From Chloroflexota bacterium (GTDB lineage: Bacteria; Chloroflexota; Dehalococcoidia; UBA2979), in NCBI GenBank assembly GCA_027593235.1, contig JAQCIU010000026.1, positions 1 through 44,756 of the forward strand: a stretch of DNA of 44,756 bases. The letters run 5' to 3'. Position 1 is the stretch's first letter, and each line of letters opens with the position of its first letter. Shown one piece after another: positions 13,311 to 31,263 of this stretch. Made by a program: the position numbers and the translations under genes. The notes under the pieces are model-generated. The model had not been told where the DNA came from, did no database searches, and worked only from the letters and a program-made list of their open reading frames with translations.

Positions 13311-14225
13311 ATGAGCGAGCAAGAGCGATTCATTGCTGACCCGGCCTACCGGGCCTTCGTGAGCTACATCGACAAGTCGCGCGAGTTCTACGGCGCGCAG
13401 GGATACGAGCGGCCATACCGCTGGGCGCGGAACGACGAGTCGCCGTTCACCCCGCTCACCAAGCCGCTCTCCGAGAGCCGAATCGGCCTCGTCACCACCG
13501 CCGTCAACCTCGACCTCCCGGACGACACCGATACCGAAAAGCTCCCCATCGCCTCGACGTTCGCGGCGCCCTCCGACCCCCCGCCGGAACGGCTGTTCAC
13601 GCAGAACCGCTCATGGGACAAGGAAGCAACCCACACCAACGACGTGGATTCGTTCTTCCCGATCCACCGCATGCAAGAGCTGGTCACGCAGGGCAAGGTC
13701 GGCAGCCTCTCGCCCCGCTACTACGGCATCCCGACCGAATACAGCCAGCGCCGCACTAACGAGGTGGACGCGCCGCAGCTCCTGGCGCTCATGCGCGAAG
13801 ACGATGTCGACGTGGCCATGCTGGTGCCGCTCTGACCGGTCTGCCACCAGACCGTGAGTCTGGCCGCACGACACCTCGAGGCCAACGGCATCCCGACCGT
13901 GATCTGCGGTTCCGGTCGCGACATCGTCGAGCAAGCCGCGGTCCCGCGCTTCCTCTTCACCGACTTCCCGCTCGGTAACCCGATCGGCAAGCCGTACGAC
14001 GCCGAGATGCAGCGCGCGATCACCTCGATGGGTCTCGACCTGCTCGAGTCGGCGCGCTTCCCGCGCACCACGGTGCAGACGCCGTTCTCCTGGGGTGACG
14101 ACTCCTGGCGCCCCGGCTTCATGCGCGTCGATGAGTCGAATCGCGAACTGCTCCGCCGCGCCGGCGAAATCCGCAAGAAGCAGCAGGCGCGCCGCAAGAC
14201 CGAAGGCCGCGTCCGCCCCGAGTAG
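13311..14225 (+). CDS. Glycine/sarcosine/betaine reductase selenoprotein B (GrdB/PrdB-like) family protein; in-frame UGA at 13833-13835 read as Sec
   Basis: The two track ORFs are in one frame joined by LVPL-TGA-PVCHQTVSLAARHLEANGIPTV, a UxxC motif; a hairpin follows the UGA. Confidence 0.88.
13847..13863 (+). promoter_or_regulatory. Putative bacterial SECIS upper hairpin
   Basis: ccagac-cgtga-gtctgg stem-loop separated from the UGA by an 11-nt spacer. Confidence 0.65.
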
Positions 14226-25757: not shown

Positions 25758-27143
25758 CTACGCGGGCTCCCACAATTCGGTCTCGGGATAGAACTGCGAC
25801 CAGGCGAACCAGAATGATTGGTGCGTGGCGATCGTTTCGCCCGACGGCGTCTCCGCGCGCAACGCACCGTCCACCAGCCGCACCGTGATCCCGTCGAACA
25901 TCACCGCCGCTCCGGTCGCGATCGCGAAGCGTGCCGCTGCCGCCGGGAATGCCACCACGGTGCCCTCGTGCCGCACCCCCAGCACCGGCTCCTGCACCAG
26001 CAGCCGAGGGTCGACAGACCCCGTCGGGAAGATCGGGCCGTTCGCGTCCCGCTCCCCCAGCGGGTCGAGCGTGTAGCTGCCTAACTGCCCCGACACCGCC
26101 GCCACAATCTGGGCGTCCGGCCGCGCCGCTCGGAAGTGCCCCCACTCCGCCACCCCGACCGACACCGGTTCGAGGACCAGCCCCACGTCGTGCAGCGGAC
26201 CGGAGATCGCCCGCCCCCGGAACGTGTCGAACAGCGAGTACGTGTGGAGCTCGAACATCACCTTGTTCGATCGCGAGAGCAGCCCCGACGTCCGAATCTC
26301 CAGCGTCCCCGTCGATGTCTCGATGCCCTCCGGCAACTCGTCGGTGAAGAATGCCTGCGCCGTCCCGCAGAGCGTGCAATACACGAGCGCGATCCGCCGA
26401 CCGCCGATCGTGTCGTTCACCAACTCGTGCACTTCCATCACGTTCTTCGGATACGCGCGGATCTCGCCGTTGACCTCAACCGTGAACACCAGCCGCTCGT
26501 CCGGGTACCAGTCACCGTTTGCCGCCCCTGTCACCGGCGGATCGTTGAGCGACGGGATGCAGTTGCCGCACCCGCGGTCCGCCTGGTCGATCGGGCGGTC
26601 ATCGATCGCCACCCCGCCCCAGCTCACCAGCCGCCAGTCCACCTCGCTGTTCGGGTCGTCGAAGAACGGATTCCAGTCCGCGCCGATCAGTTGAATCAGC
26701 GCGATCTTCAGCCGCGCATAGTCGTCCGGTGCCGCGATGTCGTTGCCGATCAGGTAGTCGGTCGTCTGTTTCCAGCCGCGCGGGTACTCCTCCTGGCCGG
26801 TCAGCTCCTGCCACGCATCGTTCAGCTCTTCCGCCGTCTGCCCGCGCGGGAAGAACTGCATCAGGTCCGAGAGATACCAGGCGTTGCGAACGTCGCCGCT
26901 CCGCCCCACCCGCGCGATCCGCTCCGAACTCAGCCCGCGGTTGAACGCGTGCATGAGGACCTCGATGTCCTTCGCGGTCTGCTCCGGGGGAGTGGTCGGG
27001 GTTGCGAGCGCTGCCGCGGTCGTCGGCTCGGCCGATGACACCGCCGTCGCATCCGCTCCGTCGTCAGTGTCGGAGCAGGCCACGAGGCCCAGCGCGGCGG
27101 CAGCCAACGCCACGGCTATCGCCGCCCGGAGGTTCAGGCGCAT
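25758..27143 (-). CDS. DUF3179-domain lipoprotein
   Basis: Lipobox LVAC, WGGV, RAYP, HELVND, YCTLCG, SGLL..SN, FWFAW. Confidence 0.85.
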   Translation of the reverse strand: MRLNLRAAIAVALAAAALGLVACSDTDDGADATAVSSAEPTTAAALATPTTPPEQTAKDIEVLMHAFNRGLSSERIARVGRSGDVRNAWYLSDLMQFFPRGQTAEELNDAWQELTGQEEYPRGWKQTTDYLIGNDIAAPDDYARLKIALIQLIGADWNPFFDDPNSEVDWRLVSWGGVAIDDRPIDQADRGCGNCIPSLNDPPVTGAANGDWYPDERLVFTVEVNGEIRAYPKNVMEVHELVNDTIGGRRIALVYCTLCGTAQAFFTDELPEGIETSTGTLEIRTSGLLSRSNKVMFELHTYSLFDTFRGRAISGPLHDVGLVLEPVSVGVAEWGHFRAARPDAQIVAAVSGQLGSYTLDPLGERDANGPIFPTGSVDPRLLVQEPVLGVRHEGTVVAFPAAAARFAIATGAAVMFDGITVRLVDGALRAETPSGETIATHQSFWFAWSQFYPETELWEPA

Positions 27144-27280
27144 CTCAGCTCCTCGGATCGCCGGGTGGGGGCGCGCTGCCCGATCGTACGCGAGCACCCC
27201 TCTCTACGAGGGTGATCGCCGCTCCGCTGCCGCCCGCCTGACTGCGTTAGAGCTGCCGCCGCGCCGTCGGACCGCATTGC

Positions 27281-28144
27281 CTACTGACGCGCCCGCCGCT
27301 CCTTCCACCAGGCGTCTTCCTCGGCGAATCGCTCCGCGTTCCACGTGAGCGCCGCCTTCAGACCGCCCTCCGCCCGCCGCGCGTTGTACTCCTCGATCAC
27401 CGGTGACGACTCCGGGCTCGCGAGGGCATTCGCTTCGAGTTCGAGCGAGCGCTCGAGCACCTGCCGGACGCCCATCAACTCGTAAGACATGTTGATCAGC
27501 TTTTTGTTGTACTCGACCGTCGGCTCGGGCAGCTTCGCAATCGTCAGCGCCTGCCGCCGAACCGCCTCGTCCAGCTCGTCAGCCGGAACAACCTCGTTCA
27601 CGAGGACCAGCCGCTTCGCCTCTTGGGCGTCGATCAGGTTGCCGGTGTAGAGCAGCTCGCGCGCCTTCGTCATCCCAATCACCCACGGCCAGACTGCCGG
27701 GATGTACGGCCCGCCGGTCCGGATCTCCGGCGCGCCGAACAGCGCATCCTCTGAACAGATCCGCAGGTCGCAGAACGTCGCGGTCGCCAGCCCGCCGGCG
27801 ATACAGAAGCCGTGGATCTGCGCGATGATCGGCTTGGGGTTGTTCCAGAACACATCCCACCACGCCGAAGCGCTGAACCCCTTTCCCTTCATGAAGCGGT
27901 TGCGAACCTGCACCGCATTCGATCCCCCACCCCCGCCGCTGATGTCGAACCCAGCACTGAACGCGCGACCGGCCGCCTTCAGCACGATCACGCGAATCTG
28001 CTCGTCGCCCCAGCCCGCATCCTCCAGGGCGTCACGTACCTCCAGTTGGAGGTCTTCCGAGAGCGCATTGATCTTCTCGGGACGGTTGAGGGTGACCGTG
28101 GCGATCGGCCCGTCCTTCTCGTAAACGATGTTCTCGTAGTCCAT
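27281..28144 (-). CDS. Enoyl-CoA hydratase/isomerase family protein
   Basis: LNRPEKINAL, FSAGFD, KPIIAQIHGFCIAGG. Confidence 0.9.
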   Translation of the reverse strand: MDYENIVYEKDGPIATVTLNRPEKINALSEDLQLEVRDALEDAGWGDEQIRVIVLKAAGRAFSAGFDISGGGGGSNAVQVRNRFMKGKGFSASAWWDVFWNNPKPIIAQIHGFCIAGGLATATFCDLRICSEDALFGAPEIRTGGPYIPAVWPWVIGMTKARELLYTGNLIDAQEAKRLVLVNEVVPADELDEAVRRQALTIAKLPEPTVEYNKKLINMSYELMGVRQVLERSLELEANALASPESSPVIEEYNARRAEGGLKAALTWNAERFAEEDAWWKERRARQ

Positions 28145-28214
28145 GGCCGCCACCGTCTCCTCCGCGCACAGCGTGTGCGGCGGCATTGTAGGCCGCGTCA
28201 ACGAGGCCGATGCG

Positions 28215-29417
28215 CTAGCCGAAGACCCGCTTCGCCGCCAGCGCCGCGACCTCTTCCGCGCTGAATCCGTAGCCATCGAGGACCTGTCGCGTGTGCTCGC
28301 CGACGGCCGGTGCGGGACCGCGCGCGTGGATGTCCGCGCCGTGGATCTTGAACGGCGCCGCGAGCACTCGGTAGGTCTGCCCGGCGGCGTTGGTGACTTC
28401 CTCGAACGCGCCGCGGTCGCGGAGTTGCGGATCGTTCACCACCTCGAACGGCGTCGCGATCAGCGACCAGATGCAGCCCGCCGCATCGAGGCGTGCGCGC
28501 CACGTCGCGAGGTCGTGCTGGCGGAAGATCGCGTCCACCTCGGCGAGCAGCGCGGGCCCGTTCTCCCGCATCGCCGCCGTCGAGGTGTACCGGGCGTCCT
28601 CGGCGAGGTCGTCGCGCTCGATCGCCGCGCAGAAGCGCGACCAGTACCGCTCCGGCAACGGCATCGTGAGCTGCATCCAGCGGCCGTCGCTCGTCTCGTA
28701 GGTGTTGCGAGTGACGTGCCAGTGCTTCGACCGGTCCTGCCGTTCGAAGTCCCACTCATCGCGGTTCAGCGCCTGCTGCGTATCCGACGCGATCGCCCAG
28801 ACACCTGTCTGCAGCAGCGACACGTCGACGAACTGGCTCTCCCCGTCACGGTCCCGCAGCCGCAGCGCCGCGAGCGTTGCCGCCAGCAGGTTCAGCGCTG
28901 CCATGTGATCGCCCTGTCCCGCGCGCGATTGCACCGGCGGTGATCCCGCCTCGCCGATCAGCCACGTCAGCCCTGATCGCGCGAAGAACGTCGTCCCATC
29001 GAACCCCGGCCGCTCCGAGTCCGGCCCGTCCGATCCGTACCCCGTCAGCAGCGTGAACACGATCCGCGGCGCGGCGGCGCGCACTTCCTCGTACGTCAAT
29101 CCGTAGCGACGCAACCGCCCCGGCGTCAGGTTGGTCACCAGCACGTCCGCTTGCGCGGCCAGCCGCTTCACCACATCGCGCGCGTCGGGGCTCTCGAGGT
29201 CCAACGTCATCGAGCGCTTCCCGCGGTTGTCGACCGCGAACGGGAAGCTGATCGGATCGCCCTCTCGGACGGTGCGATGCCCTCGATAGACGTCACCGTC
29301 CGGCGGCTCGATCTTCACCACGTCGGCGCCCAGGTCGGCCATCAGCGCCGCCGATGCTGGTGCGGCGAGGTAATTCGCCAGCTCGATCACGCGAATGCCC
29401 TCAAGTGGTCCGGCCAT
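28215..29417 (-). CDS. CaiB/BaiF family III CoA-transferase
   Basis: PLEGIRVIEL, DLGADVVKIEPP.GD, NRGKRS, GFD, GEHT. Confidence 0.92.
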   Translation of the reverse strand: MAGPLEGIRVIELANYLAAPASAALMADLGADVVKIEPPDGDVYRGHRTVREGDPISFPFAVDNRGKRSMTLDLESPDARDVVKRLAAQADVLVTNLTPGRLRRYGLTYEEVRAAAPRIVFTLLTGYGSDGPDSERPGFDGTTFFARSGLTWLIGEAGSPPVQSRAGQGDHMAALNLLAATLAALRLRDRDGESQFVDVSLLQTGVWAIASDTQQALNRDEWDFERQDRSKHWHVTRNTYETSDGRWMQLTMPLPERYWSRFCAAIERDDLAEDARYTSTAAMRENGPALLAEVDAIFRQHDLATWRARLDAAGCIWSLIATPFEVVNDPQLRDRGAFEEVTNAAGQTYRVLAAPFKIHGADIHARGPAPAVGEHTRQVLDGYGFSAEEVAALAAKRVFG

Positions 29418-29610
29418 GGATCGCCTTCCCGACGCGGGGCGTGCAGCACGCTCCGACTCGGGGAGGATGCTATCTGCCCGACGCTGTGCGTGACATCCCG
29501 AAACCCACGTCGACCACGGCGTGCCGGGGTCCACGGATTGCATCTGTTGTATCGACACGGCGCCGGCCCGAGGCGTACCGTGCCGTCGTAACCCATGAGG
29601 AGGTGCGTAC

Positions 29611-30795
29611 GTGAGCATCCGCGGGAAAGCCGCGATCGTCGGCTTCTACGAAATTCCGACCCGGAAGGAGTATCCCGGACGGACCACGTTCGGGCTGCTC
29701 GCCGAGGTTGCGCGTGGCGCGATCAGCGACGCCGGCCTCCGTCGCGAGGACATCGACGGGCTGATCACCCCCGAGGCTCTCAATTCGATCACCGTCGCCG
29801 AGGTCCTCGGGCTCAAACCGCGGTACACGCAGTCGATGACGACGCATGGCGCCAGCGGCGCGACCTCCGTCGTGAACGCGGCGCAGGCGGTCGCCAACGG
29901 CCTGGCCGACTACGTGATGTGCATCTTCGGTGCCTCGCAAGGGCGGGGAACCACGCGCGCGCGCGGTCAGGCCGAAGCGCGCGGCATCCTGCCCCCCGCC
30001 AGTCGCACCAGCGAATGGGAGGCGCCCTACGGCCCCGTCATCGCCATGAACGGCTGGTACGGGCTGATGAAGCAGCGCCACATGTACGAGTTCGGCACGA
30101 CCCAGGAACAGTTCGCGAAGGCCGTCGTCGACCAGCGGTTCAACGCGTCGAAGAACCCGAACGCCGTCTGGTACGAGCAGCCCGTGACGATCGAGGACGT
30201 GCTCAACTCACGGTTCACGAACGAGCCATTGCATCTGCTCGAAAGCGTGATGCCGTCGTCCGGCGCGCACGCGATCATCATCGCCTCGGCGGAGCGCGCC
30301 CGCGCGATGCCCAACCCCCCGGTTTACATCCTCGGGATGGGTGGTCCTGCGACCCGCCACGACATCATCTACACGGACGACGACATCACGACCACGCCGG
30401 TCGTCGACTCCGCGCCGACCGCGTTGACGATGGCCCAGGTCAACATCAACGAGATCCAGCTCGCACAGTTCTACGACTGCTACACCATCCTCGAGATGGC
30501 CTGTCTCGAGGACGCGGGCATCGTGAAGAAGGGCGAAATCGGGCCCTTCTACGAGAGCACCGATACCACCTTCAAGGGGCAGTTCCCCATCAACACGGAT
30601 GGTGGCCAGATCGGCGCCGGCCAGTCGGGCAACGGCGGCGGCGGATTCCGCCACGTCGTCGAGGCAACACGTCAGGTCTCGGGACGCGCCGGTGAGCGGC
30701 AGGTAGAGGAGGCCGACCTCTGCCTGGTCAATGGCTGAGGTGGCTCAGGGAGCGTGATGTGCACGCTGGTGCTCGGTTCGAGCGCCACACTCTAA
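29611..30795 (+). CDS. Thiolase-fold (SCP2/Ltp2-like) protein with in-frame UGA at 30736-30738, candidate selenoprotein (394 aa if read through)
   Basis: YDCYT and PINTDGG motifs; after the TGA the frame continues GGSGSVMCTLVLGSSATL-TAA, which supplies the final thiolase beta-strand; DUF35 partner follows. Confidence 0.8.
30751..30767 (+). promoter_or_regulatory. Putative SECIS-like hairpin
   Basis: agcgtg-atgtg-cacgct: 6-bp stem and 5-nt GUG-containing loop, 12-nt spacer after the UGA. Confidence 0.5.
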
Positions 30796-30837
30796 TTCAG
30801 GAATCCAGCCAGCAAGGAACCAACGGACGGCACGCGG

Positions 30838-31263
30838 ATGACCACCGAAACCGAATACAAGAAACCGCTCCCACGTCCGGCTGAGCCGGAGTTGACCGAG
30901 CCGTTCTGGGAGGCGGCGAAACGCGGCGAACTGGTGATCCCTCGCTGCAACTTCTGCGCCGACTTCTTCTGGTATCCACGCGAGGCCTGTCCACAGTGCC
31001 TGCGCGCCGACTGGGATTGGACGCCGGTCAGCGGGAACGCCCGCCTCCACACCTACACGGTGGTCCGCCAGCCAGCGCACCCCGCGTTCGCGGACGACGT
31101 CCCCTACGCCTTCGCGATGATCCAGCTCGACGAGGGCGTGCGCATGATGTCCAACGTCGTGAACTGCGAGATCCCCGATGGCCTCGCGGTCAACATGCCG
31201 CTGAAGGTCGTGTTCGACTCGATCACCGATGACTGGACCTTGATCAAGTTCGAGCCGGCCTGA
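30838..31263 (+). CDS. Zn-ribbon/OB-fold (DUF35) thiolase partner protein
   Basis: PFWEAA, CNFC...CPQC, PYAFAMIQLDEG. Confidence 0.92.
   Translation: MTTETEYKKPLPRPAEPELTEPFWEAAKRGELVIPRCNFCADFFWYPREACPQCLRADWDWTPVSGNARLHTYTVVRQPAHPAFADDVPYAFAMIQLDEGVRMMSNVVNCEIPDGLAVNMPLKVVFDSITDDWTLIKFEPA

Follow-up and report, generated by a model that had tools for sequence, protein, structure and literature searches.

A 44,756-nucleotide (nt) contig from a marine, SAR202-type Chloroflexota bacterium of the Dehalococcoidia (UBA2979; GenBank assembly GCA_027593235.1, contig JAQCIU010000026.1; hereafter the window, taken at its full length) carries a gene for a thiolase-fold protein whose open reading frame (ORF), at 29611-30738 on the forward strand, ends in ...DLCLVNG followed by TGA (30736-30738). 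The question raised by this locus is whether that codon ends the protein or encodes selenocysteine (Sec, U). The frame reads on past the TGA as GGSGSVMCTLVLGSSATL, 18 codons, before a TAA at 30793-30795, giving a full gene of 394 codons plus stop (29611-30795, forward strand) with a GTG start and a Shine-Dalgarno sequence, GAGGAGG, at 29597-29603. An original prediction, made from the letters of the window, had described this interrupted frame with coordinates and sequence that agree with ours, and had proposed that residue 376 is Sec. Judged from sequence comparison, it is very likely that the gene encodes a 394-residue selenoprotein in which the UGA at 30736-30738 is read as Sec376, and that the product is a thiolase-fold enzyme resembling the aldolase Sal. 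SelB and a tRNA-Sec with anticodon UCA would decode the UGA, guided by a short hairpin approximately 12 nt downstream.

The TGA is conserved well beyond this genome. Six-frame searches of 41 related genomes recovered one-TGA orthologues in 13 of them, with identities from 100% down to 46%, and the TGA column is kept at all 13 loci; in each, the codon is followed by GG[STIF]x[SE]xM..L[VI]LG and then by a real stop 17-18 codons on. It is also kept in 16/16 mapped loci from named metagenome-assembled genome (MAG) records, all Dehalococcoidia, SAR202 or Chloroflexota, in 13 further copies, and in 20/20 copies beyond those, so that the codon occupies the same column in 62/62 TGA-bearing copies aligned. 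When the read-through protein was used to search a protein database, 120 cluster representatives were returned from Dehalococcoidia/Chloroflexi MAGs, publicly named "thiolase family protein" or "acetyl-CoA acetyltransferase" (CoA, coenzyme A): 106 of these terminate precisely at ...N[GT], a sense codon occupies the site in 11, and the other 3 are fragments, which indicates that gene callers cut the family at the UGA. The residue at site 376 in the 11 full-length sense-codon homologues is Asn in seven, Cys in two, Ser in one and Val in one. The expectation that homologues would conserve both the TGA and the coding sequence after it was thus borne out, whereas the accompanying expectation of Cys in other genomes holds for just two of the 11, Asn being the usual residue.

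Downstream of the UGA lies a candidate Sec insertion sequence (SECIS) element, a hairpin at 30751-30767 (forward strand) with a 6-bp stem, AGCGUG/CACGCU, and the loop AUGUG, beginning 12 nt after the UGA as originally predicted. Across 22 distinct sequences, 88.6% of cells in the 6-bp helix are paired, compared with at most 53% when the 3' arm is slid. Covariation, which had been suggested as a check on the hairpin, is present: compensatory double changes occur in three of the six pairs (8 cells), and the covariation score of 0.195 (shuffled mean 0.059) was reached by 0/500 shuffles. The encoded residues change as well in several of these double changes (e.g. Val/Thr to Glu/Ser), and variation at third positions is 0.565 outside the hairpin as against 0.25 within it. 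Of the 31 distinct TGA forms, 25 have a perfect stem of at least 6 bp that begins 6-15 nt beyond the codon, whereas just 2 of 16 sense-codon homologues do (Mann-Whitney p = 2.7e-5, which overstates the contrast as the sequences are related). Divergent TGA copies have a stem equally far from the codon, though the stem sequences themselves differ greatly. The hairpin is therefore conserved as a structure and is specific to the TGA forms of the gene.

The machinery for Sec insertion is complete in the source genome, which encodes selA (544.2 bits), selB (299.7 bits), selD (359 bits, with an in-frame TGA of its own) and a tRNA-Sec (72.7 bits) for which ARAGORN gives the anticodon TCA. Of the 13 TGA-form genomes among the 41 relatives, 12 have selA, and the exception is 71% complete. 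We also surveyed 251 genomes sampled evenly from the class, with a family match cut-off of E <= 1e-85; these genomes are kin, and we give counts with no test. A family match was found in 54 of them, and among the matches listed (104), 40 have one TGA, 36 have two and 28 have none. With at least one copy from each genome checked residue by residue, the TGA form is present in 33/251 genomes, and selA is found in 31 of these 33, in 15 of 21 genomes with sense forms only, and in 178/251 overall (including the unpublished genome G265). Eight family-bearing genomes are without a selA match, and six of these have a sense codon, which is Asn in the five that were aligned. One genome, G242, was initially counted as a TGA form; its one-TGA row has Asn at 376, placing the TGA elsewhere, and it was moved to the sense group. 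In marine Dehalococcoidia/SAR202 the family is expanded, and a genome may have as many as four members.

A second in-frame TGA provides a separate line of evidence. The protein in the window contains the motif YDCY (Tyr288-Asp-Cys290-Tyr; 30472-30483, forward strand), and in 22 copies from other genomes (6 + 10 + 6 in three alignments) a TGA falls exactly on the Cys of this motif, giving YDUY. These double-Sec loci, with TGA at both 290 and 376, are L035-L039, L041, L076-L083, L087 and L099-L104. Minimum free energy folds of six sequences show, in five, a hairpin that begins approximately 10 nt beyond the second TGA and has a 5-nt loop; the loop reads CGUGA in five of the six, and the L037 copy has z = -2.95. 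All five double-Sec genomes tested have selA. Site 290 shows clear alternation between Cys and Sec, and Cys290 aligns with Cys304 of CtSal, which is mutationally essential according to PMC12329534. Within one genus, the same paralogue has Sec290/Sec376 in four genomes and Ala290/Asn376 in five, so that both residues have been lost together; this joint loss may point to a coupled Se/Se or Se/S pair with a catalytic or redox function. The genomes of this genus have four family copies each. Gene callers would split double-Sec genes at codon 290. The original proposal that residue 376 is Sec thus draws on the conserved TGA and frame, the TGA-specific hairpin and the Sec machinery, and further on the sense codons of most selA-less relatives and on this second Sec/Cys site.

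Several observations weigh against the assignment of Sec376. The prevalence of Asn (7/11) over Cys (2/11) in sense-codon homologues is unusual for a catalytic Sec. The hairpin of the window is thermodynamically unremarkable (z = -0.14, with 76/200 shuffles folding as well), and the case for it therefore rests on the comparison with other genomes, where RNAalifold, given the 22 distinct sequences, returned a weak and different consensus (-2.89 kcal/mol) from which the hairpin is absent. A search of 30600-30900 against Rfam gave chance-level matches alone and none for the hairpin, and a subgroup with the tail GGTVSSMATLVL (11 copies aligned, one genus) keeps the TGA with a stem that is weak, short and interrupted. 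Finally, a selA match was not found in two TGA-form genomes, G040 (71% complete) and G117 (95% complete).

The sense residue and the short, unexceptional hairpin would also suit a readthrough in which near-cognate or suppressor decoding places a standard amino acid (Trp, Cys or Gly) at the UGA. We nevertheless consider such decoding very improbable. The genome has the full set of Sec genes together with a tRNA-Sec bearing the TCA anticodon, selA accompanies the TGA form in the proportions given above for both single- and double-Sec genomes, and TGA serves as the ordinary stop of the adjacent gene while being absent from the interior of paralogues. Moreover, where the second TGA stands, other members have a catalytic Cys, and an exchange of this sort is the classic relation between Sec and Cys; insertion of Sec at both sites remains the reading that we prefer.

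A different alternative is that the UGA is a true stop, the product has 375 residues, and the conservation downstream belongs to an RNA element, for example one coupling translation to the following gene, which encodes a DUF35 protein. Public gene calls do end at the UGA in the 106/120 representatives described above, and there is a second small hairpin further downstream (GCUCG-GUU-CGAGC, at 30771-30783, 32 nt after the UGA and inside the LVLGSS codons), the like of which occurs in many orthologues and, by eye, in one sense-codon homologue, so that it is probably not Sec-specific. However, the extension after the UGA behaves as coding sequence. Its 18 codons (30739-30792, forward strand) vary mostly at third positions, the mean pairwise difference over the 15 codons after the TGA being 0.22 at first, 0.156 at second and 0.461 at third codon positions. 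In contigs assembled from metagenome runs of other studies, some of which leave parts of the gene without contig cover, both changed codons after the TGA are synonymous in the read-through frame, as are 33 of the 36 changed codons in the whole gene. The extension is also homologous, in frame, to the last β-strand of sense-codon homologues and of the solved relatives 9myr and 4u4e, to whose C-termini it aligns. In an AlphaFold2 (AF2) model of the protein (pLDDT 89.2), it forms the Gly-rich turn and final strand (382-389) of a C-terminal β-hairpin whose first strand spans 370-377, and a stop at 375 would delete this last strand from the core hairpin. On the same logic, a quarter of the protein would be missing in those relatives whose codon 290 is a TGA. 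We therefore regard termination at the UGA as very improbable. An error in sequencing or assembly, or a recent pseudogene confined to one genome, might be entertained as the origin of the TGA in a MAG (the source genome is 89.66% complete, in 78 contigs), but this explanation is effectively refuted, as is the outcome that the original prediction had named as fatal to it, a TGA unique to this assembly, by the unchanged codon in contigs of three independent runs (X3, X4, X6) from three other studies and in every TGA-form orthologue aligned, across dozens of genomes.

If the UGA encodes Sec, what enzyme carries it? Pfam assigns the protein to Thiolase_C_1 (6.4e-41), and Thiolase_N matches weakly. 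The best sequence match is CtSal (E 2.5e-70), and the top Foldseek match is the corresponding Sal-Shy(DUF35) aldolase chain, 9myr_A, with a TM score of 0.91 at 36% identity; 4u4e and 6ok1 were also among the best fold matches. CtSal is a bile-acid side-chain retro-aldolase from Comamonas testosteroni that acts with Shy(DUF35) (PDB 9myr; PMC12329534). According to that paper, Tyr302 and Cys304 of its YDCY motif are the catalytic base and acid, respectively, and the C304A, C304S and C304H mutants are inactive; Gln347 and Gln352 stabilize the thiolate, Gly89 stands where thiolases have their nucleophilic Cys, and the oxyanion hole is formed by the backbone of Gly391 and the side chain of Gln161.

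In an HMMER alignment (9myr chain numbering is that of CtSal + 24), Tyr302, Cys304, Gln347, Gln352, Gly89 and Gly391 of CtSal correspond to Tyr288, Cys290, Gln333, Gln338, Gly80 and Gly378 here. The two proteins thus have in common the YDCY motif, both flanking Gln residues, the Gly at the nucleophile position, the oxyanion Gly and a DUF35 partner, while Thr389 of CtSal is Sec376 here and its oxyanion Gln161 is Met146. In the family alignment, Tyr288 and Asp289 are invariant and Gln333 is nearly so (at least 90% of rows). Gly80 (29848-29850, forward strand) is likewise invariant in family alignment A2, and in alignments to the canonical thiolase of the same genome it takes the place of the nucleophilic Cys, with Gln338 in the place of the GHP His. 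The original prediction had put a His at the nucleophile position (TTHGASG); the alignments assign that position to Gly80 and not to His79. Its description of a thiolase-fold enzyme holds for the fold and fails for the mechanism, since both the nucleophilic Cys and the GHP His are gone. On these alignments, the protein is not a true thiolase but a predicted C-C lyase of the Sal-like, DUF35-partnered kind, its closest characterized relatives being the retro-aldolases CtSal and TcLtp2. The catalytic set predicted by comparison with CtSal comprises the Tyr288 and Cys290 of YDCY as a dyad, together with Gln333, Gln338 and, at the oxyanion hole, Gly378.

Classical thiolases are built around four loops, CxS, NEAF, GHP and CxG, of which the last contributes a catalytic Cys and, two residues on, a Gly. 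The genome's own canonical thiolase (L043:700-1875) has the same fold and the same C-terminal β-hairpin bearing the CxG Cys; of the four catalytic loops, two are changed in the Sec protein (Cys to Gly80 and His to Gln338). It reads ...LVSLC376-I-G378GG, and its AF2 model also has a strand at 370-377. In their respective models, U376 of the Sec protein and the CxG Cys376 of the thiolase are both the seventh residue of this strand, and the pattern LV[NS]x[UC]xGG is common to the two proteins; Sec376, in the motif NGUGG, stands two residues before the oxyanion-hole Gly378. From the hairpin register of the models, the shared motif and the oxyanion Gly of CtSal, we suggest with moderate confidence that Sec376 stands where classical thiolases have their acid/base CxG Cys, a position in which it is predicted to lie next to Cys290. 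The confidence is held at that level as profile alignments disagree on the register, and these disagreements count against the placement: when the profiles of the family and of canonical thiolases are compared by hhalign, Cys371 falls opposite the CxG Cys and U376 opposite Gly380 of the thiolase, MAFFT and HMMER (judged by the ends of the Pfam PF02803 match) give yet other registers for U376, and single-sequence hhalign to the canonical thiolase stopped at residue 363, short of U376.

Other relatives differ in instructive places. The TcLtp2-ChsH2(DUF35) steroid aldolase (PDB 6ok1) also combines a thiolase fold that has no nucleophilic Cys with a DUF35 partner. The SCP2-type thiolases and the trypanosomal SCP2-thiolase-like protein (HDCF / YDCF) share the fold (TM ~0.8) and have an acid/base Cys in the same loop, equivalent to Cys290 here, but SCP2 thiolases keep the nucleophilic Cys and His where the Sec family has Gly80 and Gln338; we know of no SCP2-type thiolase that contains Sec. 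TcLtp2 uses YDHF together with Tyr344, whereas the protein described here has YDCY, with Gln338 at the position of that Tyr, as in Sal (PMC12329534). With known bacterial selenoproteins, such as the one encoded by the PrdB/GrdB-like gene in the window, the protein shares an in-frame UGA, a hairpin 10-12 nt on and a predicted dependence on selA/B/D and tRNA-Sec. Thiol-type oxidoreductases, with UxxC or CxxU motifs, make up most of the known selenoprotein families; in the present protein, by contrast, the Sec lies in NGUGG within a predicted C-C lyase active site, and the usual residue in its place is Asn.

The genomic context offers a candidate partner and a candidate pathway. Immediately downstream, 42 nt after the TAA of the Sec gene, is a gene for a DUF35 protein (30838-31263, forward strand; Pfam zf-ChsH2 and OB_ChsH2_C) with a C4 zinc ribbon and an oligonucleotide/oligosaccharide-binding (OB) fold, ending in an ordinary TGA stop. 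Of 37 related loci, 35 have a DUF35 match, in most of them immediately downstream; the match is upstream in two distant sense-codon homologues, at one locus it lies on the opposite strand at a distance of approximately 2.5 kb, and the two loci that have no match end at or inside the gene. The pairing of DUF35 proteins with enzymes of this kind is a textbook one, and the Sec enzyme would bind the zinc-ribbon/OB protein encoded next to it. Divergently oriented is a family III CoA-transferase gene (28215-29618, reverse strand; Pfam CoA_transf_3 4.7e-104), which recurs near double-Sec copies. The longest ORF of this gene overlaps the start of the Sec gene at 29611 by 8 nt; its Pfam match runs from residue 72 on, and the true start is therefore probably further in. 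Next to it is an enoyl-CoA hydratase/crotonase family gene (27281-28276, reverse strand; Pfam ECH_1 6.4e-41), and downstream of the Sec gene are genes for a thiamine pyrophosphate enzyme and a formamidase-family protein. The DUF35 partner of CtSal is fused, as C-terminal domain, to a MaoC hydratase; its counterpart here has a gene to itself near that of a crotonase-type hydratase, and no steroid context is seen around the gene.

This arrangement would fit a sequence of CoA activation, hydration and C-C cleavage. The neighboring CoA-transferase and enoyl-CoA hydratase would make the substrate, presumably a β-hydroxyacyl-CoA, in which the enzyme would then cleave (or form) a C-C bond. The catalytic Cys of CtSal has a high intrinsic pKa, according to the authors of PMC12329534. 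In the Sec enzyme, the low-pKa selenol of Sec376 might act as a proton shuttle or acid-base partner of Tyr288/Cys290, or might form a reversible bond to Cys290.

A tree was built from 36 sequences after both trait columns had been taken out of the alignment. Sec forms are paraphyletic on this tree: nested within them are forms with Asn, Cys, Ser or Val, and outside them are forms with Thr, Asn or Ser. The smallest possible number of changes in Sec state is six, and at least three are forced by well-supported branches. As the hairpin is found at the same place in distant Sec clades, we favor one gain of Sec376 followed by repeated losses, a history that the tree does not prove. The Asn codon AAC is three substitutions from TGA, so losses would have passed through intermediates; Cys and Ser are observed, rarely.

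The window contains a further selenoprotein gene. A crude scan of the window for split ORFs bridged by one TGA gave approximately 100 places, nearly all GC-rich spurious-frame noise, and by eye the positions 30736 and 13833 alone looked real. The latter lies in a PrdB/GrdB-like gene (13311-14225, forward strand) whose TGA at 13833-13835 has the context L-U-P-V-C (UxxC) and is followed after 11 nt by the hairpin CCAGAC-CGTGA-GTCTGG at 13847-13863, matching the geometry and spacing that the original prediction had reported for it. This gene is a divergent member of its family (TIGR04483 at 93.5 bits against a cut-off of 300, with no Pfam match at 1e-4), and its loop, CGUGA, has the same letters as the loop after the second Sec site of the double-Sec thiolase-fold genes. 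The selD gene of the genome (G000:C16:112734-113672, reverse strand, locus L023) has one in-frame TGA (...CAGUAGK...), followed after 11 nt by the hairpin GGGUC-UCGG-GACCC. A DUF3179 protein is encoded at 25758-27197 (reverse strand) in a copy that has no in-frame TGA; DUF3179 is among the selenoprotein families listed by a 2026 review (PMC13188914).

As for novelty, Table 1 of that review, published in May 2026, gives 119 families and subfamilies of selenoproteins from prokaryotes, and no thiolase-domain family is listed in the table (PMC13188914). A term search of PMC2398784 returned "thiolase" zero times in the text covered. A full-text literature search did not find a Sec-containing thiolase-fold protein; supplementary family lists, which fall outside the scope of that search, may bear on novelty. 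NCBIfam release 20.0 yielded no selenoprotein-specific model for the protein, all 20 matches being below their cut-offs. On this evidence the protein appears to represent a candidate new selenoprotein family, not yet in published catalogues, which agrees with the original claim of a new family insofar as Table 1 of PMC13188914 can speak to it; that the family has been described somewhere before is unlikely, though it would be no great surprise. Going further, we tentatively suggest, with somewhat more doubt than conviction, that this is the first selenoenzyme of the thiolase superfamily, that its selenium takes part in acid-base or nucleophilic C-C chemistry on CoA thioesters and not in the work of a thiol oxidoreductase, and that Sec376, at the ancestral CxG site beside the Sal-type catalytic residue 290, forms a coupled Se/Se or Se/S pair with it.

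The finding has practical and biological consequences. The annotation error is systematic: 106/120 public representatives are short by 18-19 residues, and double-Sec genes would be short by approximately 100. The known selenoproteome is dominated by thioredoxin-like redox proteins; if the family is confirmed, it would gain the thiolase-superfamily fold and a reaction type, C-C lyase/aldolase chemistry on CoA thioesters. The family also offers a route to testing the role of selenium, in that the mutationally defined catalytic Cys of its closest solved relative is Sec in some members. With the TGA form in 33/251 sampled genomes, and in multiple copies, selenium supply would be tied to the carbon-degrading metabolism of an abundant ocean lineage, and selenium may, if this is true, have a role in the breakdown of recalcitrant carboxylic acids in the ocean.

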